Notes under the pieces: model-generated
Told to the model about the DNA's origin: nothing
Databases searched by the model: none
Seen by the model: the letters and a program-made list of their open reading frames with translations, nothing else
Translations under genes and position numbers: made by a program
Shown here: positions 885 to 19,439 of the stretch, one piece after another
Numbering within the stretch: the stretch's first letter is position 1
Layout of the letters: each line of letters opens with the position of its first letter
Virus record (IMG/VR): IMGVR_UViG_3300016722_000150
Span: 1-44,002 of that record
Source of the DNA: a virus
Taxonomy: Duplodnaviria; Caudoviricetes
Reading direction: 5' to 3' (one strand)
DNA length: 44,002 nucleotides

Positions 885-1310
885 TTAAGCAACTTCTTCC
901 TTATTATCCACTTCATTTTCAGAAGTTGTCAATGAAAGCAAATTAAGTAACTTACTGATTTGTTTATCTTTCTCTTCTAATTGCCTTTTAAGAAATTCAT
1001 TTTCTTTTAATAGAATAATCATATCGTTTTCATTTTTAGGATCATAAGTTCCATGTTGCTCGTTAGCAACTGTGTTTTTTATAAAAACATCTCCTTTCCC
1101 GATAGTAATATATTCTTTAGAAATTCCAAAATTTATACAAATAGCATTAATAAAATTGTCGGATAATTTTGCCTTATCACTAAGAATATCGGATAAAAAA
1201 GTCCTGGTATAACCAATTTTTTTAGCAAAATCAGACTTATTTATTATTCTTCCATTTGTTTTCAATGTATCTATAACATCTTTAATTCTCTCTAATGCAG
1301 ACTTTTCCAT
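885..1310 (-). CDS. CI-like XRE HTH phage repressor
   Basis: N-terminal HTH (KSDFAKKIGYTRTFLSDIL...GISKEYITIGKG) and C-terminal coiled coil; divergent from the early operon. Confidence 0.85.
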   Translation of the reverse strand: MEKSALERIKDVIDTLKTNGRIINKSDFAKKIGYTRTFLSDILSDKAKLSDNFINAICINFGISKEYITIGKGDVFIKNTVANEQHGTYDPKNENDMIILLKENEFLKRQLEEKDKQISKLLNLLSLTTSENEVDNKEEVA

Positions 1311-1507: not shown

Positions 1508-1515
1508 TATCTTTG
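1508..1515 (+). promoter_or_regulatory. Early rightward promoter -7 element TATCTTTG(CA)
   Basis: Canonical Bacteroidota TAnnTTTG about 40 nt upstream of the first early ATG. Confidence 0.7.
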
Positions 1516-1552
1516 CATCGTTAATTAATCATCAAAAATAACACAAAAGATT

Positions 1553-1843
1553 ATGCAAAGCAATAGCAAAAAGATAGTAAAAAACAAAATTCGTGTAGAC
1601 TTCATGAAATTGAGGGGTTTATATGAAGCATTGCCTCAAAATTCGGTAGGAACGATAGTTAGAAGGCTTGCGGCTAAAGACCGTAAGATTTGTAATCAGA
1701 CAGTTATTAACTGTTTCATACAGTATAAGGTAAGTGGTTTATACGACAGGGAGATAATTGCTGAAGCTATCAACATATTGAATGAACATGGCTACAATAA
1801 GACTTTAGCCGATTATGAACTTCCCGAACCTTCAAAAAACTAA
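1553..1843 (+). CDS. Cro-like or small DNA-binding early protein
   Basis: First gene divergent from the repressor; small, basic and helical; call is positional. Confidence 0.5.
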   Translation: MQSNSKKIVKNKIRVDFMKLRGLYEALPQNSVGTIVRRLAAKDRKICNQTVINCFIQYKVSGLYDREIIAEAINILNEHGYNKTLADYELPEPSKN

Positions 1844-1846
1844 GCC

Positions 1847-1984
1847 ATGACTGCAACTTTAAAGAACACAAAAATCCGGGTACTACTTCTCAAAAAGATA
1901 GAGTACCGGTACATCGCCCAGGTAATAGAATCGGGCGAAAAAATCCAGGTTTATGAAGATGAATTAACATTTGATCAGCCATGA
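1847..1984 (+). CDS. Small hypothetical protein (MTATLKNTKIRVLL...)
   Basis: Hand-translated ORF filling the gap; ends TGA-TAG and overlaps the next ATG (ATGA). Confidence 0.6.
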   Translation: MTATLKNTKIRVLLLKKIEYRYIAQVIESGEKIQVYEDELTFDQP

Positions 1985-2286
1985 TAGAGAAAACAATTAT
2001 CCAGTGCGATAAGGAAGATTTAGCCAGCATCTTCATTGAAACGACAAGTAAGTTAATTATTGAAAACGCTTTCAATAAGTTTTCAAACCGGATGGTTGAC
2101 ACACATACCGCCTGCCAGATTCTTGGGATTACAAAAAACACATTATTCAAATATGTGAACGAAGGTCGGCTAATCAATAAAGGTACACCTGATAAATTCG
2201 AGTTTGACCTTTCAAGTATTCTTAAAACCGACACTAAGAAGTTTAGCAGGGTAGGGGTAATAAATTTTAAACTCTTAAAAAACTAA
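1981..2286 (+). CDS. Excisionase-like HTH protein
   Basis: VDTHTACQILGITKNTLFKYVNEGRL resembles the Xis/HTH_17 pattern. Confidence 0.75.
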   Translation: MIEKTIIQCDKEDLASIFIETTSKLIIENAFNKFSNRMVDTHTACQILGITKNTLFKYVNEGRLINKGTPDKFEFDLSSILKTDTKKFSRVGVINFKLLKN

Positions 2287-2290
2287 AGCC

Positions 2291-2503
2291 ATGTTAGAAC
2301 CTGATAATTGCCCGATTTGTGGAAGCGACGATATTAGATGTGTTGATAGTGAAGAAAGAATACTCTTCCATGCTACCCGTGAAACGCCCGAGGAGACGGA
2401 GCCTGTTTGGCAGGAATGGAAATGTCGGGATTGTGATAACGATTGGTTTGTGGGTAGCGAAAACCCGAAAGAGGAATATGTTCCAGAATTAGAAATGGTA
2501 TAA
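2291..2503 (+). CDS. Small zinc-ribbon protein
   Basis: CPIC...CRDC motifs. Confidence 0.7.
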   Translation: MLEPDNCPICGSDDIRCVDSEERILFHATRETPEETEPVWQEWKCRDCDNDWFVGSENPKEEYVPELEMV

Positions 2504-2620
2504 AAAAAGGGCAGAACCTACAATGTTCCACCCCCAAGAGTATGCACCAACAAAAGTACAACGAAATAATAAAATATTACAAAAACATAAAATCAATTAT
2601 TAACAATTAAAAAACAAGAG

Positions 2621-3151
2621 ATGCAAAAGAGAATCGAATTTCATTACAATGACAAGACAAAAGAATTGTATGTCAGCACAACAGTCCCGTTTGAAAAAGC
2701 AAACCCGGACGATCTGACGGAGGTTACCGAAGAGATGCTGGAAAAGCCAACGGTATTAAAAGCACTAAGACTGATGGGATGTAGCAGTTTTCCTCAACAA
2801 CTGAAACAATATGTTACATGTCTCTACGGTGGCAATGATGATAAGCCGGATATTGACGAAAACGGAAATAATCCGGATTACAGCCATTGCGGAAAGCGCG
2901 GAAACTGCAAATTTGAAGGATTACCTGGTCTTTGCAGTCTGCCTATAATTGACGGCAAAAAACTAACCAGGTCAGACATTGACATTGCCCAAAGACTAAC
3001 CGATGGCAAAATCAGAAAAGAGATAGCAGCCGAAAGATTTACCTCTATCCATACAGTCAACGCACAGATCAGAAAATGGTGTAAAAACTTCGGAATACAT
3101 CAGTCTGAAATTATAAAGAAATCAATTAAAGCAGGAATTGTAAACTTTTAA
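2621..3151 (+). CDS. LuxR-type HTH regulator
   Basis: C-terminal LTRSDIDIAQRLTDGKIRKEIAAERFTSIHTVNAQIRK; Cys-rich middle. Confidence 0.8.
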   Translation: MQKRIEFHYNDKTKELYVSTTVPFEKANPDDLTEVTEEMLEKPTVLKALRLMGCSSFPQQLKQYVTCLYGGNDDKPDIDENGNNPDYSHCGKRGNCKFEGLPGLCSLPIIDGKKLTRSDIDIAQRLTDGKIRKEIAAERFTSIHTVNAQIRKWCKNFGIHQSEIIKKSIKAGIVNF

Positions 3152-3153
3152 CC

Positions 3154-3309
3154 ATGTCTTTTATATACAAAATACTGATTGTCCTTTCATCAACAGCTTT
3201 AATAGTTGTAGCTCTTTATCTAAGATTCTTATATAAAGAACATCGAACATCAAAGCGATCAAACAATCAAATTAACCTCTCAAAAATTGATAAACGCTAT
3301 GAATTGTAA
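3154..3309 (+). CDS. Small membrane protein
   Basis: Hand-translated 51-aa ORF with a hydrophobic N-terminal segment, filling the gap. Confidence 0.45.
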   Translation: MSFIYKILIVLSSTALIVVALYLRFLYKEHRTSKRSNNQINLSKIDKRYEL

Positions 3310-3526
3310 TACAGCAGAACTGATAGAGAAGCACGAAAAAGCAATTAAAGTGCTTGGAGCCATCAATCATTTTGAACGGACTATCACAACTATTGAAAAC
3401 TCAAAGCGGATGTTCCCCGGCTTCTATCACGCCGAACAACTTGAAAAATGGGAGCGAAACATCGAAATCGACAAGATGTGCATTGACAGACTGAAACAAA
3501 GATATAACAAAATATTAAATAATTAA
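3299..3526 (+). CDS. Hypothetical protein
   Basis: ORF in the early operon with an ATG start. Confidence 0.6.
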   Translation: MNCNTAELIEKHEKAIKVLGAINHFERTITTIENSKRMFPGFYHAEQLEKWERNIEIDKMCIDRLKQRYNKILNN

Positions 3527-3530
3527 CAAT

Positions 3531-3905
3531 ATGGAACTTACAGGAATAGTAATTAAAGTATTGCCTTTACAGAGTGGTGAAGGCAGAAATGGAATCTGGA
3601 AAAAACAGGAATACGTAATAGAAACCGAAGAGCAATACCCTAAAAAAATATGCTTCTCGATGTGGGGAGAAAGGATTGATAACGCTAACATCAAAGAAGG
3701 TGAGCAAATCACTATCTCCTTCGATGTAGAAAGTAGGGAATATGAAGGCAAATGGTACACTCAGGTAACCGCTTGGAAAGCGGTTAAGATGTCCAATCAG
3801 CCTGCCGCCGGTGAGCCAAAACATTATTACGAACCGCCGACTAAGGATAAAACACCGGGCAATGATTTGCCACCGGAAGCCCCAGAGGATGACTTACCTT
3901 TTTAG
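3531..3905 (+). CDS. DUF3127-like single-stranded DNA-binding protein
   Basis: WKKQEYVIET-QYPKKICF...SREYEGKWYT and an acidic DDLPF tail. Confidence 0.88.
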   Translation: MELTGIVIKVLPLQSGEGRNGIWKKQEYVIETEEQYPKKICFSMWGERIDNANIKEGEQITISFDVESREYEGKWYTQVTAWKAVKMSNQPAAGEPKHYYEPPTKDKTPGNDLPPEAPEDDLPF

Positions 3906-3952
3906 TAACTAATTAAATAACAATAAATTAAACTTTTTAAAAAACAAAGAGC

Positions 3953-6064
3953 ATGACACTAATTAAAAAAAGTACAGAATTGAACATCGACGTTAAAATT
4001 AAAATGTTGATTTACGGCCAGGCTGGAATCGGGAAAGCACAGCCCATTTATGCAAATATTCTAACTCCAAATGGATTTAGGAAAATATCCGAATTGAAAG
4101 TTGGAGACAGCGTAATTGGATTGAACGGAAAAACACAAACAGTTCTTGGTATTTATCCGCAAGGAGTGAGACCTGTTTATAAATTAACTACAAATGATGA
4201 CTCTATTGCTTTCTGTGATGAAGAGCATATTTGGACTGTAAGGCATTCAACAGGAAATAGCCGAAAAGCAGGATTCAGAAATTATACATTAAAACAAATG
4301 TTGGAAAAAGGTATAATTTGTCCACAAACTCCACGCGAAAAAGAAACAGGAAGAAAGGCAATGTCAAGATTTGAATTGCCTGTTATTGAGGCTTCTATGT
4401 TTGAAGAAAAGCAGTTTGATATTCACCCTTATATTCTTGGGGTTCTTATTGGTGACGGTTCACTAACAGAAAGTGTTGCCACATTTTCAAACCCTGATAT
4501 TGACGATGAAATTTACCATCATGCATGCAATGTCATTGAAAAGGGATTTCTCATTGAACGTTACGAACATCCGAGTTGTCCGAAATGCCATATTGTTATG
4601 GAAGTAAATAAAAAAGGTGATGGATATATTAATAGAATCAAGAAGCTGAAATTAAATGTTACTTCTGAAAATAAGTTTATTCCAGAACAATATATGCTTG
4701 GAAGTATATCTCAACGCTACGATCTACTTCGTGGGCTAATGGATACGGATGGCTCCGCAAACAAGAATCGTATTTGTTTTTCATCTTCGTCTGAAATATT
4801 AGCACATGATGTAAAAAATTTAGTATTGTCTTTGGGAGGAATAGCAAAAATACATGTTTACAAAAGGAAGGACAAAGGAACAGAATACAAGGTTAATATA
4901 AATACTCCTGAATGTCCATTCTTCTTAAAGAGAAAAGCCGAAGAATGGTCAAGACACACCATATCACGATATATAATTAATGCCGAAAAGATAGAAAATT
5001 GTGAATGTATTTGTATTAAAGTGTCAAATGATGATGAACTTTATGTTACAGATAATTATATCGTAACGCATAATACAACTATCGCAATATCAGCACCTAA
5101 GCCATTATTATTTGATTTCGATGGGGGTATTCATCGGGTGAACTTCGCACATCTGGAAGGGGTAGACACCGTTCAGGTTGGTAGTTACGATGATTTCCTT
5201 GAAGTTTTAAATAACGAAGATTTATCAGCTTATGAATCGTTAGTGATTGATACGGGTGGGAAAGCCTTGGATTATATGGCCACTTACCTGATCAAGAAAA
5301 ATTCAAAGCTTGGTAAAAGTAACGGGACATTAACATTACAAGGGTACGGCGAAAGAAAAGCCGAATTTTCCGCCCTGTGTAAGAGGGTTTCATCGCTAAA
5401 TAAGCATATTATTTTTGTCGCCCATCGTGAAACAAGGCAGGATGGAGACGATATGAAATATGTGCCTTTATTTGGAGGCTCAAATTATGATTCACTCGTA
5501 ACCGAACTTGACCTCGTTGGCTATCTTGAAGCCAATGGACGCAAGCGTACCATTACCTTTGATCCGACCAGCCGGAATGATGGTAAGAACACCTGTAATC
5601 TGCCCGCCCAGATGAATATTCCCAATATCGTTGACGAAAAGGGGAACGCCACGGCTCCAAACAACTTCTTAACTGAAAACATCATCAAACCTTATGTTGC
5701 ACGGTTACAAGAGAGGAAAGAAATGGTCGCTAAATACGATGCTATTATCTCCGACCTCTCAGTCCAGATAGACCTTATTACTGACGAAGAAACAGCTAAC
5801 GAGTTTATCGGTAGGATTAACAATTTTGAACATGTTGGAAGCAGTAAACTGATGGCTGCCCACATGCTTAATATCCATTGCAAAAATTTAGGGTTGGTGT
5901 TAAATGCAAAAACTAAGAGATATGAGGCTGCACCGGTTTCACCAGCTGCAAAACCTACTCCGGTTCCACCAGCTGCACCAGCTGCAAAACCTGCATCCGT
6001 TCCAACAGTTGCAAAACCTGCAAAGCCTGCATCTGTTCCAACAAATCAAAGCAGTTTACTATAA
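3953..6064 (+). CDS. Sak4-like AAA ATPase (AAA_24) recombinase interrupted by an intein
   Basis: Walker A YGQAGIGK|TT split by the intein; LLFDFDGG, LVIDT and FVAH motifs; Pro/Ala-rich tail. Confidence 0.85.
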   Translation: MTLIKKSTELNIDVKIKMLIYGQAGIGKAQPIYANILTPNGFRKISELKVGDSVIGLNGKTQTVLGIYPQGVRPVYKLTTNDDSIAFCDEEHIWTVRHSTGNSRKAGFRNYTLKQMLEKGIICPQTPREKETGRKAMSRFELPVIEASMFEEKQFDIHPYILGVLIGDGSLTESVATFSNPDIDDEIYHHACNVIEKGFLIERYEHPSCPKCHIVMEVNKKGDGYINRIKKLKLNVTSENKFIPEQYMLGSISQRYDLLRGLMDTDGSANKNRICFSSSSEILAHDVKNLVLSLGGIAKIHVYKRKDKGTEYKVNINTPECPFFLKRKAEEWSRHTISRYIINAEKIENCECICIKVSNDDELYVTDNYIVTHNTTIAISAPKPLLFDFDGGIHRVNFAHLEGVDTVQVGSYDDFLEVLNNEDLSAYESLVIDTGGKALDYMATYLIKKNSKLGKSNGTLTLQGYGERKAEFSALCKRVSSLNKHIIFVAHRETRQDGDDMKYVPLFGGSNYDSLVTELDLVGYLEANGRKRTITFDPTSRNDGKNTCNLPAQMNIPNIVDEKGNATAPNNFLTENIIKPYVARLQERKEMVAKYDAIISDLSVQIDLITDEETANEFIGRINNFEHVGSSKLMAAHMLNIHCKNLGLVLNAKTKRYEAAPVSPAAKPTPVPPAAPAAKPASVPTVAKPAKPASVPTNQSSLL
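4037..5074 (+). mobile_element. 346-aa intein with LAGLIDADG homing endonuclease (class 3-like)
   Basis: Starts AQP and ends VTHN before Thr+1; block B CDEEHIW; LAGLIDADG motifs YILGVLIGDG and LLRGLMDTDG. Confidence 0.93.
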
Positions 6065-6089
6065 GGCATTGCCTTTAAAAAAATAAGTT

Positions 6090-6875
6090 ATGAAGCCTAA
6101 TTACAGATTTTATGCAACATTGCTCGATGCATTTCAGGGGTATTTATCCTCCTCTGAAATGTACCAGCAATTTTGGGGATCATCTGAGAACCCTGCAAAG
6201 ACAGAGGAAGAGTTTGAGCAAGAACAATACCAATCCCTCATTGATAACATTAACCGTGTACCCTTTGACAGCGAGGCAGCCGATAAGGGAACAGCATTCA
6301 ATGAGGTTGTGGATTGCTTAATCGAACACCGTAAATCAGAGAAAATGGATATTAAATCAGACAAGGGGAATGGGATTATCAATGTAAACTATAACAGCAG
6401 AACCTTTGAGTTTCCCTTAGCTCTTTGTCTTGAATTTTCTAATTATTTCAGAGGAGCATTGACTCAGCAACGAGTTTCCGGGTTGGTTTATACAGGATTG
6501 GGAATCGTTGAAGTCTATGGAGTTACCGATGAGATAATGCCATTAAAAGTTCATGACATCAAGACAACAGGGAGATACAATGCCTTTAAATTTAAAAAAC
6601 ACTGGCAGCATATTGTTTACCCGTTCTGCCTGCTTCAAAATGGAAACGGTGTTTATGATTTTGAATATGACATTACCGACTTTCAGAAGATTTACGTAGA
6701 AAATTACACTTTCAACCCTGATATTCATATTCAACAGCTGGTCAATCATTGTGAAAGATTAATCCAGTTTATTGAAAATAACATGGATAAGATTGATTTA
6801 ACTACAACCAAAATATTTGGTAATAATGACAACAATAGAGGAATTGCAGCAAATGCAATCATATTTGGAAATTAA
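6090..6875 (+). CDS. PD-(D/E)XK exonuclease-like protein
   Basis: GTAFNE...GVTD...DIKTT...WQH.VY motifs; adjacent to the Sak4-like ATPase and SSB. Confidence 0.75.
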   Translation: MKPNYRFYATLLDAFQGYLSSSEMYQQFWGSSENPAKTEEEFEQEQYQSLIDNINRVPFDSEAADKGTAFNEVVDCLIEHRKSEKMDIKSDKGNGIINVNYNSRTFEFPLALCLEFSNYFRGALTQQRVSGLVYTGLGIVEVYGVTDEIMPLKVHDIKTTGRYNAFKFKKHWQHIVYPFCLLQNGNGVYDFEYDITDFQKIYVENYTFNPDIHIQQLVNHCERLIQFIENNMDKIDLTTTKIFGNNDNNRGIAANAIIFGN

Positions 6876-7206
6876 CTGCTCAAACTCGCCAGAGGAAATA
6901 GAGGAAAGAATCAGCACTCTTAACGTGTATATGGCACGTTCAGGGCAGATGTTGGCTGATGCAAAAAAATTACTGCGAAGTAAAAGAACCGAACAGATAA
7001 GCCAAACCATCATCAAGATAGCGAAGGAATCCTGTTTGTCTGCTACTGTGCAAAACGCACTACTTGATAGCATTTGTGAAAATGAATCTTACCTGGTGGA
7101 CTGGACGGAAAGAGTAAACCGGAGTTGCACCCATCAGCTTGATTCATTACGAAGCCTTTTATCCTTTGAAAAAGAAGAACTAAGAATGACTAAATCAGAA
7201 TGTTAA
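6826..7206 (+). CDS. Helical hypothetical phage protein
   Basis: ORF overlapping the upstream gene end. Confidence 0.65.
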   Translation: MTTIEELQQMQSYLEINCSNSPEEIEERISTLNVYMARSGQMLADAKKLLRSKRTEQISQTIIKIAKESCLSATVQNALLDSICENESYLVDWTERVNRSCTHQLDSLRSLLSFEKEELRMTKSEC

Positions 7207-7244
7207 AATTAACACTTTTAAACTAACAATCAAAAACTTATAAA

Positions 7245-7667
7245 ATGCCAGAAAAGCAATTATTACCGGATGAACCGGAAGAAAAGCGGATACAATATTT
7301 GACCAATTCCGCAGCAAAAATTGAAGAGAATTTTTCCTACACACATCACTTCACAGAGGAAGAGCTTTCCGAAAAGAAAGATGCCCTATCCGAAACTGCC
7401 ATTGATATTGCTAATGTCAATGCTGATTTTGCGGATGTTAAAAAGGAATTTAAGAAGCAGCTTAAAGCCAAAAGTCAAGTAATGGTTGATCTTATATCCG
7501 CCCTAAAATTCAAATCAGAACAGGTTACCGGAACCGTCTACATGATAGACTATCAGGACGAGGGTATCATGGGCTACTATAACGAAAAGGGCGAACTCGT
7601 TTCCCAACGTAAACTTTTACAAGGTGAGCGTCAACTAAGCCTGTTAAAAGCAATAGGCGAAAATTAA
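7245..7667 (+). CDS. Coiled-coil hypothetical phage protein
   Basis: Long ORF with AT-rich leader; coiled-coil character. Confidence 0.7.
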   Translation: MPEKQLLPDEPEEKRIQYLTNSAAKIEENFSYTHHFTEEELSEKKDALSETAIDIANVNADFADVKKEFKKQLKAKSQVMVDLISALKFKSEQVTGTVYMIDYQDEGIMGYYNEKGELVSQRKLLQGERQLSLLKAIGEN

Positions 7668-7702
7668 TTAACTAATAACCAAACAACTAAATAATTAAAT
7701 AA

Positions 7703-8413
7703 ATGGACAACGAAGAAGAAAAAATCAACGTAACTGTTGACGGAACAGTTAAAGAATTAGTAATCCGCCACGGGGAAGCTGCCCCGATTTTGCAACCCAG
7801 ACATTTTGCGTTTACAGGAACTATTGATGCTCCGTTTTTATACGCCAAAGGAAAATCCTTACCCGTTGCTCCGGCAGTAGTGCATTTCAACATAGATAGT
7901 GGAGTAATTTGTTTCGAGGAAAATCCTACTGATGGACTTGCTGCTGTCGTTTACGGGCAGATTGATATTAGTGAGGAAATTGAAAAATGGGGCATTAATA
8001 ACCCTAAAATCAGTTACACATCGCTTGAACTTGGACGGTTTATTAAACTTAATCGCTACTATTTTGAAAAGAAAGAGGTAGCGATAAATTTAGCCGGGAT
8101 TTTAATGGATTTAAGGATTAAGGTTGAAAAGAACATTCAGGCGGCTGATGATAACCGGGGTAATGTTCGTAAAGAGCTATCACAAAAAATTATTAATAAC
8201 TCCATCCCTGAATCATTCGCTATCAATATCCATATCATTAAGGGATTTCCGCCTTTGACTATTGAGGTTTCAATTGAAATTGACCCCGATAACTTTGAAT
8301 GCAGGTTGGTAAGCTACGAACTTGAACAGAAGATAGAGGAGATCAAACTATCCATGATGGATGATGAGCTTAAGAAGTTTCGTGAAGCCGGGTTTGTAGT
8401 GTTAGAAAGGTAA
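7703..8413 (+). CDS. Hypothetical phage protein
   Basis: 236-aa ORF with AT-rich leader. Confidence 0.7.
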   Translation: MDNEEEKINVTVDGTVKELVIRHGEAAPILQPRHFAFTGTIDAPFLYAKGKSLPVAPAVVHFNIDSGVICFEENPTDGLAAVVYGQIDISEEIEKWGINNPKISYTSLELGRFIKLNRYYFEKKEVAINLAGILMDLRIKVEKNIQAADDNRGNVRKELSQKIINNSIPESFAINIHIIKGFPPLTIEVSIEIDPDNFECRLVSYELEQKIEEIKLSMMDDELKKFREAGFVVLER

Positions 8414-8424
8414 TACTGGCATTT

Positions 8425-8497
8425 ACGGGTGTAGCTCAACTGGCAGAGCAGCGGTCTCCAAAACCGAGAGTTGTGGGTTCGATTCCTTCCACCCGTG
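8425..8497 (+). tRNA. tRNA-Trp(CCA) with a 4-bp anticodon stem
   Basis: Acceptor ACGGGTG/CACCCGT, discriminator G; D-stem GCTC/GAGC; anticodon arm GCGGT-CTCCAAA-ACCGA (G27:A43 unpaired); T-loop TTCGATT. Confidence 0.95.
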
Positions 8498-8542
8498 CAA
8501 AATTTAAACAACTAACTTAATAACAACTTAATACTTTTTAAA

Positions 8543-8896
8543 ATGAACATGTCTAAAACAAAAGAAGGGGGATTAGCACTGAAATTCGACAAAAAGGAAA
8601 CGCAATTAGTAATGACGGTGATAATAGGTGAACCTGACCCGGAAGAAATTATTGAAGAGAAAAAAGACCCGTTAAAATACCTACATGGCAACACAAGATT
8701 GTTGCTGTCCGAATTGCATAAAAGTTTCGGAGACAAGGCAATCAGTCGGGACGATAAACTTTTAAAGGAGCTAAGAAAGAGATATTACATTCCCGATTTC
8801 TCTCAAACATTAAAGGTTTGGGAAAAAAGAGGCCTGTGTTCGGTTCATAATAATGAACATGGCCACATGGATTTTTTCAAGTTGTGTCTTTCATAA
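8543..8896 (+). CDS. Hypothetical protein between the two tRNAs
   Basis: 117-aa ORF with AT-rich leader. Confidence 0.65.
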   Translation: MNMSKTKEGGLALKFDKKETQLVMTVIIGEPDPEEIIEEKKDPLKYLHGNTRLLLSELHKSFGDKAISRDDKLLKELRKRYYIPDFSQTLKVWEKRGLCSVHNNEHGHMDFFKLCLS

Positions 8897-8924
8897 GATT
8901 TTTTGCAGGTTAAATCCAATTAAA

Positions 8925-8998
8925 TGCGGGATAGAGCAGCGGACAGCTCGCTGGTTTCATAAGGTCAGAGGTCATGGGTTCGAGTCCCATTCCCGCTA
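8925..8998 (+). tRNA. Initiator-like tRNA-Met(CAT) with an aberrant anticodon arm
   Basis: T1:T72 mismatch, GCGGGA/TCCCGC acceptor, A11:U24 pair, perfect T arm; anticodon arm CTGGT-TTCATAAG-GTCAG (8-nt loop). Confidence 0.8.
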
Positions 8999-9045
8999 CA
9001 AATTTTAATCAATCAACATTTAAAACAATTTAAAAAATCACAAAA

Positions 9046-9435
9046 ATGGAAACAAAAACGAATGAAGAAAACCTTAAAATTATTAAAAGTAAAATAGCCG
9101 AAGTCAAGAAACTACTTAAAGGTTTGGATAAGGATAAAGTTGATTTACTGCTTCTTACACAAATAAATTGTGGCGATCATTATGATTGTGGCATTGCAGC
9201 AAAAGGCAACGTATTTAACTGTGCGAAAATGGTTTGCGAAGCCGCAGAAAAAAATGAGTTTATTGATAGGGTAGTTGATCTTATATCAAATAAATCTATA
9301 ATGCCTATTATCGAAAAACTACATAAAAAACTACTGGAAGAAGAAGAATTTGAATCAACAGAAAAGGAGGTAGTGCCCGACGAAAATTTAAAAGATGTGC
9401 TGGTAACAGAACCAGAACTAACAGAAACCAGATAA
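9046..9435 (+). CDS. Hypothetical protein with an acidic C-terminus
   Basis: ORF with A-rich leader. Confidence 0.65.
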   Translation: METKTNEENLKIIKSKIAEVKKLLKGLDKDKVDLLLLTQINCGDHYDCGIAAKGNVFNCAKMVCEAAEKNEFIDRVVDLISNKSIMPIIEKLHKKLLEEEEFESTEKEVVPDENLKDVLVTEPELTETR

Positions 9436-9543
9436 TATAGAGACGTCTATTTATTAATAGCAACGTATGAAAAGAGAGACAACTCTGACAAACTGGCGGC
9501 ATGGAAAGACAGCTCCCCAAAGGGATAACCTAATTATAAGAAA

Positions 9544-9837
9544 ATGACTAATACAGAAACAACGGCTACGGATGCCAGCCAATTAATAGGCATTCCACCA
9601 GACAAGGTTAGGGACAGCGCCTTGTCAATCTATAAATCTGATATTAGTGAATCAAAAGATTTTCTTAAAGATTTCGATTTGCTAATTGAATCTTTTAAAA
9701 ACAAGATTGTTCATGATAAAAATGATATACAGCGCATGTATAACTTTTATTACGCTTATAAAAATTTGTTATACAATTCAAAGATTGCTGTAAAAGAGTT
9801 AACGAAGACTTTTAGCAAGGATTTAACATTAAACTAA
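9544..9837 (+). CDS. Hypothetical protein
   Basis: ORF in the early operon. Confidence 0.55.
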   Translation: MTNTETTATDASQLIGIPPDKVRDSALSIYKSDISESKDFLKDFDLLIESFKNKIVHDKNDIQRMYNFYYAYKNLLYNSKIAVKELTKTFSKDLTLN

Positions 9838-9842
9838 AGATT

Positions 9843-9989
9843 ATGAATACTTACGCAGTAACAGGAACTTTACATGGTTCAATTATTTACGCAGATACAG
9901 AAGGTGAAGCAAGACGATTATTTCATAAACATTACAACGGGGAGTCAATTTTACATGTAAGATTAACTACCTATTTTATAGGAATTTAA
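9843..9989 (+). CDS. Small hypothetical protein (MNTYAVTG...AEGEARRLF-like)
   Basis: Hand-translated 48-aa ORF filling the gap. Confidence 0.55.
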   Translation: MNTYAVTGTLHGSIIYADTEGEARRLFHKHYNGESILHVRLTTYFIGI

Positions 9990-10000
9990 TATTAAAGTAA

Positions 10001-10432
10001 ATGAAGCGATTTTTAGATTACAGTAACATTATTGGAATTGACCCCGATTTGCATAAAAACGGGGTTGCTATTTACGAAACAAAGGGAAGGAAACTAACAG
10101 AATGCACTTCAATGTACATGTGGGATTTATTTAATACGATTTTGGTGCAAAAACAGTTTAACACCCTTTTCCGGTTAGAATTTCCAGACAATACCAATAC
10201 GTGGCATAGAGGGGGTAAGGGAGCTTCCCTGAACGTAGGGAAGAACCAGGGAACAGCAATTATCATTAAGGAATTTTTAGACGCTCACGGGTGCGATTAT
10301 GAGCTATTGAAACCAACAGGATATTCAATACTATTTAACGATGAAGATGTTTTTAAAAATACGACAGGATTCAAAAAAAAGACAAACAAAGATGCACGGG
10401 CAGCCGCAGCGATGGTTTGGGGCATAAATTAG
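10001..10432 (+). CDS. RuvC-like (RNase H fold) Holliday junction resolvase
   Basis: IIGIDPD...RLE...VGKNQG...DARAAA pattern. Confidence 0.7.
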   Translation: MKRFLDYSNIIGIDPDLHKNGVAIYETKGRKLTECTSMYMWDLFNTILVQKQFNTLFRLEFPDNTNTWHRGGKGASLNVGKNQGTAIIIKEFLDAHGCDYELLKPTGYSILFNDEDVFKNTTGFKKKTNKDARAAAAMVWGIN

Positions 10433-10458
10433 AATAGGAGAAAATAAAGAGTTATAAA

Positions 10459-11373
10459 ATGGCACGACCAAATAAAATAGGTTTGAGTTATTTTCCATTT
10501 GATGTTGATTTTTTTGACGATGATAAAATCGAATTGATTAATGCTGAATTTGGTATAACAGGTGAGAATATAATCATTCGATTGCTGTGTAAAATATATA
10601 AAAATGGATATTATTATCAATGGGGTGATGATGAGTGTTTGCTCTTTTGTAAAAGAGCGGGTGCTTCCTATCGTCCAAGTCAGATCGAGGAAGTTATATC
10701 CGGGTGTTTTAGACGTTCTTTTTTTGATGAAAGGGTATTTAAAATGTTTGGTATTTTGACTTCAAATGGTATTCAAAAAAGGTATTTAGCAGCTTGCGCC
10801 GAAAGAAAAAACGTTGAAATAATAAGTGATTATTGGGTTGGTGAACTACCAAAAGATGATAGATTTTTAATCATCGAGCATGATAAATTAGTTAATCCAC
10901 CGGATAACCCCGTTAATCCACCGATTAACCCCATTAATCCGCCGGAAAATACACAAAGTAAAGTAAAGAAAAGTAAAGGAAAAATTAATACAATGCCGGA
11001 AGAAAAAATTCCGGCTTATTCTCCCTGCATGAAAATTTACAATGATTTTATTTTAGAGAAATTAGGCGTAAAAGCAAAAATTGACGGGACGCAAGGGAAA
11101 GCCTTAAAAAATATAATCAAATACCTAAAATCAAATATCAAAGAAAAACCAGCTTCGGAACAGGCGATTTGCGATGCCTTTGAGATTATTTTTCAAAAAT
11201 ATGATCGCTGGGGTAAATTTTATCAGGGGCAATTAAAATTAAATCAAATAGATTCTAACTTAATCAATATCATTAAATTAATAAAAAATGGAAGATCAAC
11301 AAACAGCGGTTGTACCGATGCAGACGTTGTCAAACTCGCCGCAGAGATATTCGGAACCGCTGGTAGAAATTAG
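10459..11373 (+). CDS. Phage replication initiator (DUF4373/Lin1244-like N-terminus)
   Basis: MARPNKIGLSYFPFDVDFFDDDKI...GILTSNGIQKRY; low-complexity linker followed by TQSKVKKSK. Confidence 0.85.
   Translation: MARPNKIGLSYFPFDVDFFDDDKIELINAEFGITGENIIIRLLCKIYKNGYYYQWGDDECLLFCKRAGASYRPSQIEEVISGCFRRSFFDERVFKMFGILTSNGIQKRYLAACAERKNVEIISDYWVGELPKDDRFLIIEHDKLVNPPDNPVNPPINPINPPENTQSKVKKSKGKINTMPEEKIPAYSPCMKIYNDFILEKLGVKAKIDGTQGKALKNIIKYLKSNIKEKPASEQAICDAFEIIFQKYDRWGKFYQGQLKLNQIDSNLINIIKLIKNGRSTNSGCTDADVVKLAAEIFGTAGRN
10891..10950 (+). repeat. 21-bp tandem repeats, candidate iterons/ori
   Basis: GTTAATCCACCGGATAACCCC / GTTAATCCACCGATTAACCCC / ATTAATCCGCCGGAAAAT inside the initiator gene, followed by an A-rich tract. 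Confidence 0.65.
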
Positions 11374-11746
11374 TATTTATAACGGGGACTTTAACCCAAT
11401 AGAAACAACAAAATCAGTAATGAGGTTAAAGAACGCATTTCCAAATCTCGGAAGTGATTTTATTTCTGTTCTATTTGAGCGGGTACAGGAGCTTAATATT
11501 CCATGTGAACGGATTAAAGATGCTGTAAATTATCTGATAGATAATTATCATTATCCAACGATGACTATTGCTGACGTCGTTTCTTACGACAAAAAAATAA
11601 AATTACTTACATACGACGAAGTCATGAAAATTCATGCTCAAACTGGGGATGCTTTTAAAATTTATAAAGTTGTTGATTTAGGGCAAAAAACTACTCTATT
11701 TGCAAACATCAGAGATATAGAAGAATACAATTTGAAGCTTAAATAA
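11288..11746 (+). CDS. Putative helicase loader or replication accessory protein
   Basis: Overlaps the initiator 3' end; RIKDAVNYLIDNYHYPTMTIADV; call is mostly positional. Confidence 0.55.
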   Translation: MEDQQTAVVPMQTLSNSPQRYSEPLVEISIYNGDFNPIETTKSVMRLKNAFPNLGSDFISVLFERVQELNIPCERIKDAVNYLIDNYHYPTMTIADVVSYDKKIKLLTYDEVMKIHAQTGDAFKIYKVVDLGQKTTLFANIRDIEEYNLKLK

Positions 11747-11925
11747 TGGCAAGAGCTGATCAATTACCCGCTGTGCCTTATTGGGAGTGCGAAAACTACC
11801 AACATGCCACTTACGGAACACTCCCGTGGTGTACGCTATTTAGTAAATACTGCCACTCGTTTACTTGCGAAAAATGTCCAGTCAGGCATAGCAGGCAACG
11901 GATAAACAATCAAAAAGATAAATAA
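11746..11925 (+). CDS. Small Cys-rich protein
   Basis: 59-aa ORF coupled by TAATG; five Cys. Confidence 0.55.
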   Translation: MARADQLPAVPYWECENYQHATYGTLPWCTLFSKYCHSFTCEKCPVRHSRQRINNQKDK

Positions 11926-11926
11926 A

Positions 11927-12118
11927 ATGATACAAGACGGATATAAACTTTATTCAATCTATCAGAAATGGATAATTGAATATCAAAAAAGAAAATCAAA
12001 CTTTAGAGCTAACAACGACAAAGAGGGTGCGTATGAATGTCAAATTAGAATTGATACTATCCAATTATGTATGCACGAGTTGGTCAAAGAATTTAAATTA
12101 ACTTTTGCTACTTATTGA
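11927..12118 (+). CDS. Hypothetical protein
   Basis: ORF ending TGA-TAA. Confidence 0.55.
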   Translation: MIQDGYKLYSIYQKWIIEYQKRKSNFRANNDKEGAYECQIRIDTIQLCMHELVKEFKLTFATY

Positions 12119-12162
12119 TAAATAATTGATATTTTAAACTTTAAATTAAACAATTACAAACA

Positions 12163-12771
12163 ATGGAAAGTCAAAATCAAATAGAAATAGTACAGAAAAT
12201 AACTCATAGAATAAGTTCTACCGAAGGCTATCCTGTTAAAACCAACGAAGAATTTTACGCAGATTTCTGTGTTAGGCTAAAGAGAGCTTTAGGTATTTCC
12301 TTTGTTTTTATCAATGAACCTAAACTTGCAGATATTGAAACATATGTTTGCAAATATTTTAATCTGAGAAGCGATGCATTGAGAGAAAAGGGTAGGGAGG
12401 AACCGCTTATAACATACAAGATGATTTTACGTGCTATGCAGAGCGTTTTTTCTGGCGTCCCGGATTACCTTATTGAAAAGAGGTATGACTTATCCCATCC
12501 CCAGGTATCGCATGCCGTGGGCGTCGTGTGCAACTTTATTGATGCAAGAGATAAGACCTATTCTGATATTTTAAACATCTACACACACCTAAATGCCGAT
12601 TTTATACGTCTCGAAAGTGCCATTAAACCAAACGAGAAAGAAAAGACATTTCAATACGATAAGCTGAAAGCTGAAATAGAAGCCCACCCTATTACAAAAA
12701 GCATTAAGAAAAGTATTACTAACAGTGTGATATCGCAAGCTGCCCGTTACGAACATGTTCAACTCAATTAA
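12163..12771 (+). CDS. DnaA C-terminal-like HTH protein
   Basis: IETYVCKYFNLRSDALREKGREEPLITYKMI...SHPQVSHAV resembles DnaA domain IV. Confidence 0.6.
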   Translation: MESQNQIEIVQKITHRISSTEGYPVKTNEEFYADFCVRLKRALGISFVFINEPKLADIETYVCKYFNLRSDALREKGREEPLITYKMILRAMQSVFSGVPDYLIEKRYDLSHPQVSHAVGVVCNFIDARDKTYSDILNIYTHLNADFIRLESAIKPNEKEKTFQYDKLKAEIEAHPITKSIKKSITNSVISQAARYEHVQLN

Positions 12772-12804: not shown

Positions 12805-13599
12805 TTAGTATCTTTTTACCTTGTTTTTAAGGGAAATATACAAATCTCCCGTGTAAATATTGTACTCAATTTCGTAGATGTGAGTATAATTGTAATCAGG
12901 AATATTAAATATTTTCTCTTGTATAACTGCTGTCGGGTTACTGGCTGTTCCGCTTGCCTGATAAGCAACATTAATCCGAAAATTATTTAAATCTACAATA
13001 GCAGAAACCGTATGAATCCCATTGTATGCAACTTTGTTTCCTGAATAACCAGCGATTTTAACCGTCTGTCCAACAGTATACCCGTGATGCGTACAGGTAA
13101 ATGTTGCCTGTGCAGGTGGCCCGGTTACGTATTCGGCTACAGATTTTACTGAATTATTAAAATTGTCTCATGTTCAAACATCATCGCTTGCTAACAAGTA
13201 TCCTGTGCGATCAGTAGGTAATCTCAATTTATTTGAATTAGACGACATTTTTATAAATAATAACCCGATAGTTCCATCATCTCCATTAACATTATCAATC
13301 CGTAGTGTAGAATACGTTTTGGATCCGTTTACAAAAAATTGAGGAAAGTAGATGCCGGAAAAATCGCATATTGTTATTCCACTACTATCAGACACGGTGT
13401 TTTGCTGAATACGAAATGGAGAAAATGCAGCTAAGGCATTCTGTAACTCGGATACATCTACTAATCTTTGTGCATCATCGCTACCTTGCTTCGTGTACAA
13501 ATGTCCACCGTTTGCAAATATTCTGAGGAATCCGTCTTCTATTGTGCCACCAACAAGATTCGCTAATTGTCCTAATAAAAATGAGCCAATAAATTTCAT
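12805..13599 (-). CDS. Tail fibre-associated structural protein, 264 aa (2 TGA)
   Basis: Frame stays open past TGA at 13174 and 13168 down to a TAA abutting the terminator; HGYTVGQTVKIAG beta-barrel-like motif. Confidence 0.75.
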
Positions 13600-13615
13600 A
13601 GTTTTAAATCAAATT

Positions 13616-13638
13616 AAAGGGAGGTTTTGCCCTCCCTT
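13616..13638 (-). terminator. Hairpin, possible terminator
   Basis: AAGGGAGG/CCTCCCTT stem with a T-rich tail on the minus strand. Confidence 0.55.
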
Positions 13639-13660
13639 GGTTTATTAGTTAATTAAAATA

Positions 13661-14923
13661 TTAGGTAGGCATACCCGATGCGATTACATCAAGAACCCCC
13701 GTAATTACAATTCGTCCATCAAAAGCTGAATTTGATTGAAGGCTTAGTGTCCCATTTGTATAGTTCATGACACTATCGCACTCAACTTGATTACCGGTAG
13801 TATCAAAAAGCTGAAAAACAACATTATTACCACAATGGTGTACGTCATTAGTAATTTGAAAAGATGTACTGGCCGGTAGTGAGATGTTTGCGGAATACAT
13901 TTTAACCTTACTATCAGCATAAGCTTTCACGGCTTTTACTGTTGGTATTTCTGTATCAACATTATCATCAAGAAAAGCCTTGACAACTCCTGTTTTAAAG
14001 TTGTCAATTTCAAGGTTTGAAATGGTATTATTGTCTGCGTTGATAGTTTTGTTCGTCAGCGTTTGAGTTGCTGCCAATTTAACCAGGTCGGCAGATTCGC
14101 TGTTATCAATGCCGTCGAACATTGCCGCCGTAATGCCTGTCGTTGCATCTTGGTTGGCGATAATCATATCTCCAATATTCAACCCGGTTCCACTGGATGG
14201 TGTAGTAATTCCCGAAGCGCTCCCGGCAACGGTTACTTTCCAGAAATAGCCCTTTTTAATAGTGGTAATACCATTAGTAGCAATAGTTTTAGTCCCATCA
14301 AAACCTCCTGCCTGATACAGAAGCCCTCCTGCATATTGCGATTGTAAAGCTGCAATCTTAGTGTCTACATAGGTTTTTGCAGCCTTTTGAGACGCAACCT
14401 TAACATCGCTGTTCCCGGCCAATGCACCGTCAGTGTCAAGATAGGTTAACGGCATTTGCTGGACATTGTCTACGCTCCCCAATCCCACTTGAGCCTTTGT
14501 AGTGTTGTGCGGGTTGCTGGTGCTGGCGATGTGTGTGTCAATCTGCGCATGGGTATTTGTTCCTGCACCGCTCAGGTTTTGATGCACAATATTAGCTTCG
14601 ACAACATCAACTTCAATTTCATCGGTGGCCGAAGCCGTAACAACTATTTTGGTTGACTTAGCTTTAATTTTTTTAAAGTTGTGTACGCCGGCAACGGTAT
14701 CTCTTCAAATACCAACACCAGCAGTTCCGACATTAGCTGCTGCATATGGAGCTTCACAATAAACTCATGAAGTCCCATTATAACAGCCCTCCTTATTCAG
14801 GGTTGTATCGAAATACTTCTGTCCTTTCTTCGGGGAAGCAGGAGCCGCAGCCAAATTTTGCAAGGCTGCATTTTGAAGCTCGTTCCCGTTTAAATCTATA
14901 CTTACTAAGAATTTTTTTGCCAT
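13661..14923 (-). CDS. Tail fibre protein, 420 aa (2 TGA)
   Basis: Starts [19 protein letters not shown]; YNGTS[TGA] at 14765 and TGA at 14705; [17 protein letters not shown] and QTLTNKTI fibre repeats. Confidence 0.85.
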
Positions 14924-14952
14924 AGTTTTTTATCTATTAGTTTGCTTTTATG

Positions 14953-17586
14953 TTAATTACAGGTAACAGTCCCAGATGCTAACCCATTCCATGACAAGGT
15001 GCAAACATCTAAGCTATTATAGTCAACATCGACTTCTATTTCATTACCCTGTTCATCTTTCACTGTGACAGTCGGGTATTTACCCAGATAATGTTCCACA
15101 ACCACAATACAAACATTTGTGAATGATTTAGTGTAAGTTGAATCTATATTATCACTTCCTGTTCGTGCAAATGGTGAGGATTTATGGACGATTCTAAAGC
15201 CAACCAAAGGGTCGGTCATTGCCGAGTTCATTGATACGTTCATATACTTCAATCCGGTAAATGGTGTTGTTATTTTACCGGAGATTACAGGACAATACCA
15301 TTTACGATCACTTCACGCCTCTTCAAACCGACTTGCCCAATATTTTGAAGCTGATGGGCTATTTATTTGTTGCGTCGCTGGCAATCCGGCATTAGCTAAC
15401 CCGCCACAACCCTTTATAAAAGTATTTGCGATAGGTAATACCCCGGCATTGGAATAATTGTCCATTGTGTCATCGGCAAATAGGTTATCATTCGTGCAGA
15501 CATAGGCTATCGCACTATCCTGAATAGTGTAGAAAATATTGATTCCATCAACCATTTCCCCTATGTCTCCAATGAATCCTTCAATACCCCGATAGCTTAC
15601 CTGTGCGGTGTTTATCGTTACTCCGTTGCGGGTATCTTCATAAAGAACGTAACCGGAACGATTGCCAAGTCTGTTAGTCAACCCCGTTTTAAGGATGGGT
15701 TTTAAAAATCCATTATTGAAGACTTTTATATTTTCCTCATATTCACCATACGGGAAATTCCCTCCAAATATCGGGACGCTGGCAATGTCCCTTGTTTTAA
15801 ACTCAATAACCTGCATTATAGTAAGGAAGGCCTGCGTATAAATATCATTGAGCTTTTTATTCCATAAGGCAACAATAGGTCTTACCGTAGCTTTTGTAAC
15901 GCCAGTTGTCGGTATAACATTATCGCAGCTACTTCCAACACTGTCGTGAATATGACCCTTGTATGCGCCGGGGTATATGTAATCATTTTCACTGCCGTTA
16001 GAATTTAAGAAACATTCAAACGGCTTTAATTGTGAAAGGTGCTGATCGGAGATAAGCACAACATACCTGTTGTCGGAAGTTATAAAATCAGTGTAATACA
16101 GTTTTTTAATGCGACTTACAAAATCAGTGTACTCATCTCCGTTGATTTCAAATTGTGTGCTTAGAATATCAAACGATTCTCCCGCATGGGCGAAGTTTCG
16201 GTATATGGTGTATTTTGTGCCAACAGGGAAATTATGATAGTCTCCCGGGATGGAATACCATAATGTCATCTCATCGTCTATCTGTTTTATTTGAGCGTAT
16301 GCGTAAGTAGTGGCATTCAGATAAAATCCTACAAGGTCTCCAACCTTTACTTTTCAGGTTAAGAATTGTGCATGACTATCATATATATAGCCGTTTATGT
16401 CGTCTCTTTGCGGTGGAGCGGAGATGTCTTTGTTCTCCTTTGTTCCGTAAGAATGCTCGTTAACCTTGATGTATCTTACCGGGTCGATAATCAGTTCGCC
16501 ATTGGCATCACCGATAGTGCTTCCGTTGCCTAAGCCAATAATTTTAGCGTATTCATCGGTAGAAACATTATGAATATATCTGCTTCCTATATCATTAAGA
16601 TTCAACTTGTCTATCATGGTATAGACATTGCCTTGGTTAGGGCAGGAAGAAAATTGACCGCTTTTTAAAACCCCTTGCCCGCCATCCAGCATGTAGGAAT
16701 TAACAGGGTCGGTTTTGACCATAGTGTTTTTGCTTAGTGAAGGATTGAAAGTTACAATACCTCTTTCGAAGATATGGAAAGGAAGAGTATTATGATACGC
16801 CATGTTCCCAATAGCGGTAACGGCGGCGGCTTCATCGTCAATATTCCAGGTTACCCCATAGCACTGTTTTAGCAATATACAATCTTCTATCTGGTCTGAT
16901 TTTGTAACTACATGCCAGCTTCCCTCGGCATGGGCATAATAACTACCTAATGATGTACAATAAACATAAGACCCATCACTGGTATTTTCCAACCCCTGAA
17001 AGTCTTCAAAGGTGGCAAATTCTCCCATGTAAAACATGATTATCAATGTCGGTACGTATGGAGGGGTAGGAGCCTCGGTAGCTTTTATGAAAGTAAGTTT
17101 CCTCTTCATAAAATAGTAAAGGCTGTTATTGATAATTTTTTTCTTTCCCTGATAGGCTAATTCTATCGGTTCTTTTTCTTTTGGAGCTTTTAACCCGTAC
17201 CATTCTTTCAACACCCATAGCGCTATTCCCTCAGTTATTATTTCATCTAATTGATATAGTAACTGATAGGTAACATAACCATAATCGTTAGCAGCTATTC
17301 CGAATGTCGTAGTGTTGCTCTTTGTGAAATATGCCGAATCGCCTCCCTTTTTAGTCTTAAAAAATAAGTTACCAATGTCGACTAAAGCATTCTTTATTTC
17401 GGTTTTGATGAAAGATTCTTCATCAGCACTCATAAGAAGTTCTATAATAGGTTCTCCCGTCTTTTCATCTTTGAAGGTGCTAAGATGATACTGTGATAAC
17501 ATCCTTATACGGTTAAGGATATGGTTATAGGTATAAGTAAACCCGACATCATAATACCCGCTTAAATTTATATCTCTTGTGTACAT
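14953..17586 (-). CDS. Large tail or receptor-binding protein, 877 aa (2 TGA)
   Basis: Three track ORFs joined in frame by TGA at 16354 and 15313; N-terminus resembles the upstream gene product. Confidence 0.75.
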
Positions 17587-18131
17587 TATAGGAATCTGGC
17601 TTTTAGTTTGGGACGTGTGTTTTTATCGTTATTGTGCATAACCGTACTGCGCATGTCTTCTAAATTTTTTTGATACTTTTGGACATACAACTGGGTAGCT
17701 TGCGGCTTTTGGCTTCGGCTCATCCATTCGGCCATGGCGTAATTTACGATGCAGCTTTCAATTTCGGAATCCAATACGCCTATCATACTTTTTTGTAGTT
17801 TGCCGTCCATAAAATAGATTTTGATGTAATGATCATCCCCAATTTCTGGGTCTGGTGCATTAAATATCAGTGGCGTTTCTTCCGTAGGCGAAATGATGAT
17901 TGATATTTGTTTCATAATTTCACCCATAACCTCCTGTATTGGAACCAAAATAATATCAGTATCTTCATCGGGATTAAATGCGACATCAAATTGAGATTCG
18001 CCATCCTTATTTACTAAGGATTTAGCCTCATATAGTGATAGTTGGTTGATTTTGCCAAGTATCGGAGCTAACCCGTAGGCAAATACACAAATCGGGTCAT
18101 AATTTCCGTATGTAAGTCTATAATAAGCCAT
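17586..18131 (-). CDS. Virion neck or tail ring-like protein
   Basis: Position in the structural operon; IVNYAMAEWM motif. Confidence 0.55.
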   Translation of the reverse strand: MAYYRLTYGNYDPICVFAYGLAPILGKINQLSLYEAKSLVNKDGESQFDVAFNPDEDTDIILVPIQEVMGEIMKQISIIISPTEETPLIFNAPDPEIGDDHYIKIYFMDGKLQKSMIGVLDSEIESCIVNYAMAEWMSRSQKPQATQLYVQKYQKNLEDMRSTVMHNNDKNTRPKLKARFL

Positions 18132-18134
18132 TAG

Positions 18135-19437: not shown

Positions 19438-19439
19438 GG

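Follow-up and report, generated by a model that had tools for sequence, protein, structure and literature searches.

How a phage can read UGA as tryptophan in its late genes, when the only tryptophan tRNA in its available DNA carries an ordinary CCA anticodon, is the question raised by the tRNA gene considered here. The window, by which we mean the whole stretch of 44,002 nucleotides that was analyzed, is an entire IMG/VR provirus record rated 51% complete, whose start is offset by 6 bases from that of an identical contig (L396) and in which no integrase was found. A preliminary description had proposed that the tRNA, owing to a four-base-pair anticodon stem, acts as a near-cognate decoder of UGA. 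The features on which the argument rests are collected in Table 1.

Table 1. Features of the window that bear on UGA decoding (positions counted from its first letter).
Feature	Position	Strand	Basis
Repressor-like HTH gene, divergent from the early operon	885..1310	-	PHROG transcription regulator matches
Bacteroidetes-type -7 promoter motif, just upstream of the early operon	1508..1516	+	Motif scan; weak
Operon of early and replication genes (SSB, Sak4-like, resolvase, replication initiator) in the standard code, holding both tRNAs	1553..12771	+	
tRNA-Trp(CCA) with open G27·A43 top pair, clade-specific G44-A45, and U50·U64	8425..8497	+	ARAGORN, Rfam, host comparison, conserved copies
117-aa orphan between the two tRNAs, clade-only; candidate helper	8543..8896	+	One cluster, three members
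Second tRNA, fMet-like body, 8-nt anticodon loop; not a UCA tRNA	8925..8998	+	
Late module (tail, lysis, capsid, terminase, portal, ejection proteins) with 31 in-frame TGA = Trp	12805..44002	.	
Terminase large subunit, 669 aa, TGA at codon 499 (conserved Trp column)	23537..25546	+	
Polyvalent ejection-type protein, 3296 aa, nine in-frame TGA	31974..41864	-	

Judged from the gene order, the tRNA would be made only from the repressor-controlled early operon. The -7 motif preceding this operon follows the Bacteroidetes promoter consensus; window-wide the motif occurs at chance level (23 found, 26.9 expected), with none on the plus strand between 5418 and 12343, and a sigma-70 promoter scan likewise stayed at chance level. 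Within the operon, the Sak4-like annealing gene (3953-6064) contains a lengthy insertion that resembles phage terminase and helicase profiles and is probably an intein bearing a homing endonuclease, and the gene at 9046-9435 matched unnamed Atlas clusters only, all under 0.9.

Recoding of UGA to tryptophan is real in this phage and is confined to its late genes. Internal TGA accounts for 31 of the 116 late Trp codons and for none of the 31 in 24 early-region genes (p = 3.4e-4; the early count sets aside one gene-terminal TGA-TAA), and translation table 4 joins fragments into the terminase, portal, capsid, endolysin, and the 3296-aa protein. The alignment column of terminase codon 499 displays W in 109, Y in 2, and TGA in 2 of 113 alignments, many rows being near-identical prophages; opposite portal codon 75, W occurs in 12 of 14, and opposite codon 1451 of the 3296-aa protein in all eight matches. 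Some TGA columns are variable in distant homologs, capsid position 109 being W in 3 of 11. In the relatives L001 and L129 (terminase 94% identical), most TGAs are shared and TGA and TGG are swapped at a few sites, and one Arg and one Cys position have also turned to TGA. Comparison with the prophage of a host genome (G006) revealed purifying selection 3′ of the first TGA, with 261 synonymous versus 156 non-synonymous differences overall, 37 versus 3 in the portal and 18 versus 3 in the capsid gene. TGA in structural and lysis genes combined with a standard code in early genes is a feature of the code-4 phages of Borges et al. (bioRxiv 10.1101/2021.08.26.457843).

At least one TGA occurs in 16 of the 21 Trp-containing late genes (12.5 expected, p = 0.03), and the first Trp is TGA in 11 of these 21 (5.6 expected, p = 0.005; 9 of 14 in a within-gene test, p = 0.02), these tests having been chosen post hoc, after inspection of the data. 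The endolysin gene (18826-19392) is replaced in the G006 prophage by an unrelated gene (L180) that also carries in-frame TGA (codons 20 and 121), which suggests that incoming late genes acquire the code. The 3296-aa protein, with InPase and Kinase-PolyVal domains, is a mosaic; its counterpart in G006 (3052 aa) shows only partial homology and carries seven TGA sites of its own. Two genes, at 11927-12121 and 26001-26219, end in TGA followed immediately by TAA or TAG, and would thus terminate under either code.

The host context is provided by L129, which sits in a 1.32-Mb contig of a Bacteroidales MAG (G006) where an approximately 95%-identical prophage adjoins a tRNA-Arg(TCT) gene. A 19-bp repeat of the end of this tRNA gene recurs about 115 kb away, beside an integrase, and bounds a 115.9-kb element consisting of the phage and about 67 kb of cargo, which may be several stacked elements. 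The cargo island (L181-L183, L189; G006 C3 286-354 kb) contains restriction-modification-like genes, an IS110-like transposase, Rhs-like fragments, and two more repressor and early-gene remnants, the functions being read from sequence. The host uses the standard code with UGA as a real stop, since RF2 is present and its ORFs end in TGA: both RF1 and RF2 are encoded, RF2 has SPF and GGQ motifs and a CTT-TGA-C shift site, and TGA ends 8 of 43 sampled ORFs. Near-cognate reassignment goes with a UGA release factor that is weakened or lost, as with the changed eRF1 of Blastocrithidia. This feature is absent here, host RF2 being intact by sequence, in which a transient inhibition would be invisible.

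The tRNA-Trp(CCA) gene was called by both ARAGORN and Rfam (RF00005, 58.4 bits, E 3.2e-10). Its anticodon arm, GCGGT-CTCCAAA-ACCGA, sets G27 (8451) opposite A43 (8467), below which the stem continues with four Watson-Crick pairs to a 7-nt loop carrying CCA, and the T stem carries a U50 (8474) versus U64 (8488) mismatch as well as a G51·U63 wobble. Both mismatches had been pointed out in the preliminary description and were confirmed, that in the anticodon arm by ARAGORN and Rfam. A9 (8433) and G24 (8448) are wild type, with neither A9C nor G24A, and the A36-A37-A38 motif is intact. The G27·A43 mismatch is no sequencing error, because it recurs in the G006 prophage and in a second metagenome contig, L452; A43 and U64 are also present in three additional phage contigs, each from a different study, for which the compared stretch starts at 8452, 3′ of G27.

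Comparison with the tRNA-Trp of the host, which lies in the tuf-secE cluster of G006 and is paired at G27·U43 and U50-A64, indicates that the phage gene is an altered copy of this host tRNA-Trp(CCA). The G006 prophage tRNA differs from the host's at exactly positions 43, 44, 45, 47, and 64, the window's copy additionally at 20, 25, and 26, and the acceptor stem, G73, and anticodon are identical in phage and host. Positions 44 and 45 belong to a hinge linked to readthrough (Fakih et al. 2026, PMC13092985), so that the change exceeds one opened pair. The concern that host tRNA-Trp might share the mismatch was not borne out, the host copy being paired and the phage copy open.

Among about 160 matches of a metagenome scan, whose pattern fixed G27 and most of the tRNA body, the 120 listed comprise 112 with G·U, 6 with G-C, and 2 with G·A at 27:43. 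The 118 paired copies include 115 in the host tuf-secE context and 3 without context; both A43 copies lie in the context of this phage, one being the window's own contig and the other L452. A43 is thereby present in 6 of 6 phage copies, with G27 read directly in 3, versus 0 of 118 other close copies. L452 displays no differences from the window in the tRNA versus 36 in 575 positions of the flanks (p = 0.025), and the phage contigs X2, X6, and X9, from three studies, are identical to the window over 8452-8497 with 2, 8, and 3 differences in the flanks, respectively; host-type tRNA-Trp copies occur in the same runs as these three. The A43-G44-A45 arm had no match in other IMG/VR contigs. In Bacteroidales hosts, read by eye, 4 of the 150 rows listed from 283 matches are open at 27:43, as are 3 of 56 non-prophage rows, which overlap with the 150-row set.

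The mismatch as such is not predictive of recoding and is at most a ready-made state exploited by this clade, because 29 viral G27·A43 loci lack a recoding signal nearby. Its arm occurs in 28 other viral contigs, and within up to 10 kb on each side of the 29 loci, TGA frames continue in 18 of 154 cases versus 33 of 264 for TAA/TAG. A sample covering 4 of 64 collection parts gave G·A in 8 of 119 viral tRNA-Trp matches and a pair open in any way in 14 of 119. The preliminary description had proposed to test whether the 27:43 mismatch co-occurs with TGA-split genes in related phages; the pair is not diagnostic, the 29 viral loci with no recoding signal nearby including L268, a 35.7-kb phage with a G27·A43 tRNA-Trp and a tRNA-Met and no TGA in its terminase-, portal-, and capsid-like genes. 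Mismatch and recoding co-occur in one recoded clade. Searches found no relatives from 94% down to about 52% identity, the nearest non-recoded terminase found being 50% identical; early-gene scans of viral contigs returned no loci, and no close non-recoded sister with an early region was found. A set of 2677 standard-code genomes is reported to have only a four-base-pair tRNA-Trp (Fakih et al., PMC13092985).

A crude readthrough test had flagged L090, L100, L259, L268, and L140. L268 was rejected as recoded, its structural genes being intact and TGG-only, L090 and L259 looked like high-GC artefacts, and L100 displayed no stop in alignments to the window's proteins. In L268, Met, Trp (G27·A43), and Ser tRNAs lie at 8723-9463 between early genes and terminase. 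The U50·U64 mismatch does not generally accompany G27·A43 in phage tRNAs, being present in 1 of 24 parsed.

A cognate decoder was sought in the window, in the integrated element, and in the host. At normal thresholds, ARAGORN and Rfam found no UCA tRNA in the window, and neither a release-factor domain (PF03462) nor a class Ib synthetase domain (PF00579) was detected there, as the preliminary description had stated for the UCA tRNA and the release factor. Besides tRNA-Trp, the window has one further tRNA, the fMet-like one (Table 1), which was ruled out as a hidden UCA decoder: UCA represents positions 33-35 of its CAU loop, and in G006 the corresponding gene is an ordinary Met(CAT) tRNA. This tRNA displays many differences among the window, G006, X2, and X6 despite near-identical flanks, does not have the three G-C pairs seen in the host's initiator, and is probably decaying or fast-evolving. 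Sub-threshold ARAGORN calls of UCA at 5461-5542 and 26586-26689 lie inside protein genes, other relaxed calls need long introns, and both kinds are without Rfam support. UCA-anticodon tRNA calls were also obtained in the phages L076 (11996-12069) and L281, with no recoding signal in the DNA examined.

That an undetected UCA tRNA, supplied by the host, by a helper element, or in an unusual fold, decodes UGA is the least probable of the readings weighed here. Such a tRNA has some precedent, in that a suppressor is detected in only 35% of code-4 phages, a shortfall attributed partly to unusual structures (Borges et al., bioRxiv 10.1101/2021.08.26.457843), and it could lie in the remainder of a window that is 51% complete or among the G006 candidates, 150 of 292 at first look having been scored. 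Against it, the 115.9-kb element, which belongs to a 95%-identical prophage bounded by att repeats, yielded under four ARAGORN settings only sub-threshold UCA calls, which lie in coding DNA or require long introns; its only credible tRNAs were Trp(CCA) and Met(CAT), and neither a synthetase nor a release factor was found in it. None of the 46 classified G006 tRNAs (of 47 Rfam matches, from the 150 of 292 candidates scored) has a UCA anticodon; these 46 form a full standard set, and the 47th match is weak and lies beside tRNA-Arg(CCT). The outcome that a tRNA(UCA) exists elsewhere, which the preliminary description had allowed for, was thus not seen within this coverage. A two-headed UCA tRNA, with a UCA anticodon and a CCA hairpin in the variable arm, is absent from window and element, whereas it was detected in the control L230, and BLAST of the window's first 20 kb matched only two tRNA-Trp loci in G006. 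A degenerate UCA pattern scan of G006 gave 195 matches, 100 of them listed.

The codon context provides a further line of evidence. A purine follows in-frame UGA in 27 of 29 cases, 20 of them with A, versus 52 of 80 after UGG (p = 9e-4 for A), and seven other NNA/NNG codon pairs display no 3′-base shift of comparable size. In G006 as a whole the effect is weaker, with a purine after UGA in 25 of 28 (p = 0.05; A alone p = 0.13); strain-private UGA sites, which are not in the window, are followed by a purine in 10 of 11 and 8 of 8 cases and never by U, a few being shared between those two strains. A 3′-purine bias would fit any suppressor competing with RF2. The code-4 phage L230, a control of a single 20-kb locus with a cognate UCA tRNA, displays no 3′ bias, U following 8 of 23 UGAs; within its recoded genes, 23 of 33 Trp codons are UGA. 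Its UCA tRNA (6916-7011), with a long variable arm bearing the CCA hairpin, is encoded beside a paired tRNA-Trp(CCA). In the window, UGA makes up 26% of late Trp codons versus 55-74% for the A-ending codon in other two-codon boxes. In E. coli, UGA-A is a context prone to misreading by tRNA-Trp and a +4U strengthens termination (PMC5289835). The share and context of these in-frame UGAs point to a weak decoder that would compete with RF2.

It is highly improbable that editing or modification of C34 (C-to-U or lysidine-like) renders the phage tRNA cognate for UGA, with the altered positions marking the substrate of the enzyme. Efficient decoding would result, the conserved phage-specific positions would fit, and kinetoplastid mitochondria are known to edit C34 of tRNA-Trp to U (PMC13092985); yet the codon share and context resemble weak decoding, the window's proteins include no detected deaminase or TilS-like enzyme, and RNA-seq of bacterial four-base-pair tRNA-Trp revealed no anticodon editing (Fakih et al., PMC13092985).

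On balance, we lean toward the reading that the altered copy of host tRNA-Trp decodes UGA by a C34·A wobble in competition with RF2 and so frees the late genes in lytic growth. Induction would lead to production of the phage tRNA-Trp from the early operon, divergent from the repressor, and host TrpRS would be expected to charge it, because the phage and host tRNAs agree in acceptor stem, G73, and anticodon. The loosened 27:43 pair and hinge region may then raise acceptance in the A site at UGA, with Trp placed through the C34·A wobble in leaky contexts. Late genes, which RF2 would truncate in the lysogen, would be released on induction. Incomplete readthrough would keep UGA to leaky contexts, mostly one or two per gene and often at the first Trp, where UGA could serve as a lock against late-gene leakage in the lysogen. 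The near-cognate decoder of the preliminary description therefore survives in part: late-only recoding, the lack of a UCA tRNA in the searches, the paired host copy, and the weak-decoder context speak for it, whereas the mismatch turned out not to be diagnostic, host RF2 is intact, and the effect reported for an opened pair is about 2.5-fold.

The size of this effect matters for the 3296-aa protein. With a readthrough p per codon, the yield across nine UGAs is p^9, i.e., 1e-9 at 10% readthrough and 0.04 at 70%, and yields of 4-39% need roughly 70-90% per codon. Unpinning raises UGA readthrough in E. coli, where C27A gave about 2.5-fold more readthrough under overexpression and had no effect alone in vitro; G27·A43 was not among the tRNA-Trp variants tested in the Results of that study (PMC13092985). 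As a 2.5-fold effect is too small for a nine-UGA gene, RF2 must probably also be weakened, and a second step lowering its activity is probably needed; no RF2-lowering helper or inhibitor emerged as a candidate among the genes considered.

Such weakening is at once a rival to the preferred reading and its probable partner, because wild-type tRNA-Trp reads UGA well with RF2 attenuated (PMC11903333). As a rival, it holds that a phage early protein weakens RF2, upon which any tRNA-Trp(CCA) reads UGA, the mismatch being incidental and the phage tRNA adding supply; we regard this as unlikely. In E. coli with attenuated RF2, wild-type tRNA-Trp gave about 80% of residues at UGA (PMC11903333), a large effect of the kind the p^9 problem demands, and the frequency of G27·A43 in non-recoded phages is in keeping with an incidental mismatch. 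Several early genes are of no known function, one of them clade-specific and placed between the tRNAs. That orphan has no Pfam or NCBIfam match, no usable Atlas match, and no PDB match below E 0.16, and compared with G006 it displays 7 synonymous to 1 non-synonymous change. No inhibitor could be singled out, however, all 6 phage copies keep the phage-specific tRNA changes, which the 118 close paired copies do not have, the strong avoidance of UGA-U suggests that RF2 is still active, and overexpressed wild-type tRNA-Trp gave no rise in readthrough in E. coli (PMC13092985).

It is possible, although doubtful, that the mispaired copy alone switches the host code, in that reading of UGA at the CUU-UGA-C site of prfB would cut RF2 in a self-amplifying manner. 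Zero-frame reading of this shift site meets a stop after 44 codons, so that ribosomes diverted into the dead 44-codon frame might make less RF2, a speculative amplifier.

A very unlikely reading treats the phage tRNA as a passenger, kept for supply or for defence against tRNA-cutting nucleases, with the late genes made through the basal or stress-raised UGA readthrough of the host. Small phages such as L268 do carry tRNA-Trp and tRNA-Met without recoding, the in-frame UGAs stand in the leakiest contexts, and the host tRNA itself has a weak G27·U43 pair. Drift also occurs at the locus, where the neighboring fMet-like tRNA varies freely between strains and looks unconstrained. High yields are nevertheless needed for the capsid, the portal, and the nine-UGA protein, in a host that has RF2 and uses UGA as a real stop. 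Hosts of five distant non-recoded prophage relatives displayed paired tRNA-Trp only (5 matches in 4 of the 5 genomes), and the nearest non-recoded relative (44 kb, 66% complete, sharing late genes only) has no tRNA.

What would be new in the preferred reading is the use of the mechanism by a phage, the mechanism itself having already been shown in bacteria: four-base-pair tRNA-Trp(CCA) is an established UGA decoder in trypanosomatids and bacteria (Fakih et al. 2026, PMC13092985). In line with the preliminary description, which was aware of no such mechanism in a phage, a literature search from which most subscription journals were outside coverage found no phage near-cognate four-base-pair tRNA-Trp; in PMC13092985 the word "phage" occurs in the reference list only, and the Borges et al. 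preprint makes no mention of near-cognate decoding. No decoder has been identified for 65% of TGA-recoded phages (Borges et al.), and if the proposal is true, a mispaired-tRNA switch would explain part of this 65% of code-4 phages without a detectable suppressor, suppressors could hide behind a normal CCA anticodon, and a four-base-pair-stem tRNA would act as an inducible code switch instead of a fixed genome-wide reassignment. In this clade a single genome with intact RF2 holds both a host tRNA-Trp and a prophage version that differs from it by five bases, a naturally matched pair which makes near-cognate decoding by a phage directly testable.

Several known systems share parts of this arrangement. 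The code-4 phages and recoded prophages of Borges et al. (bioRxiv 10.1101/2021.08.26.457843) likewise combine recoded structural and lysis genes with standard-code replication genes, a standard-code host, and a proposed lytic-lysogenic lock; UGA is read there by UCA suppressor tRNAs (35% of code-4 genomes), in some cases accompanied by TrpRS and RF1, none of which were found in the present element, and their two in-depth prophages are TAG-recoded gut phages, whereas here the codon is TGA. The phage TrpRS:tRNA-Trp(UCA) pairs of AP1 and HF2 (PMC12636597) also employ a phage tRNA to place Trp at UGA against RF2, but unlike these cognate pairs the present element displayed neither a UCA tRNA nor a synthetase. 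Natural readthrough by E. coli tRNA-Trp, like that proposed here, uses the C34·A wobble, favors a 3′ A, and needs A36-A37-A38 (PMC5289835, PMC11903333), although in this phage it must cover essential genes; and unlike in the Hirsh suppressors G24A and A9C, A9 and G24 are wild type and the changes lie at 43-47 and 64. Closest in structure are Blastocrithidia nonstop, Ca. Zinderia insecticola, and bacterium XS4, with which the phage tRNA shares the CCA anticodon, the 7-nt loop, the open top pair, and the lack of A9C and G24A (PMC13092985); UGA=Trp coding is common to these four-base-pair systems as well, and the pair opened here, G·A, ranks among the three most frequent open pairs of the Fakih et al. 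set (PMC13092985). Those systems have no cognate UCA tRNA; here none was seen in the 115.9-kb element or among the 46 classified G006 tRNAs (150 of 292 host candidates scored). By its predicted structure the tRNA thus fits the "Blastocrithidia-like" definition (PMC13092985), without the weakened release factor. Unlike in Blastocrithidia-like systems, it is borne by a phage, stands beside a paired host tRNA-Trp and an intact RF2, and would serve a subset of late genes instead of a whole genome.
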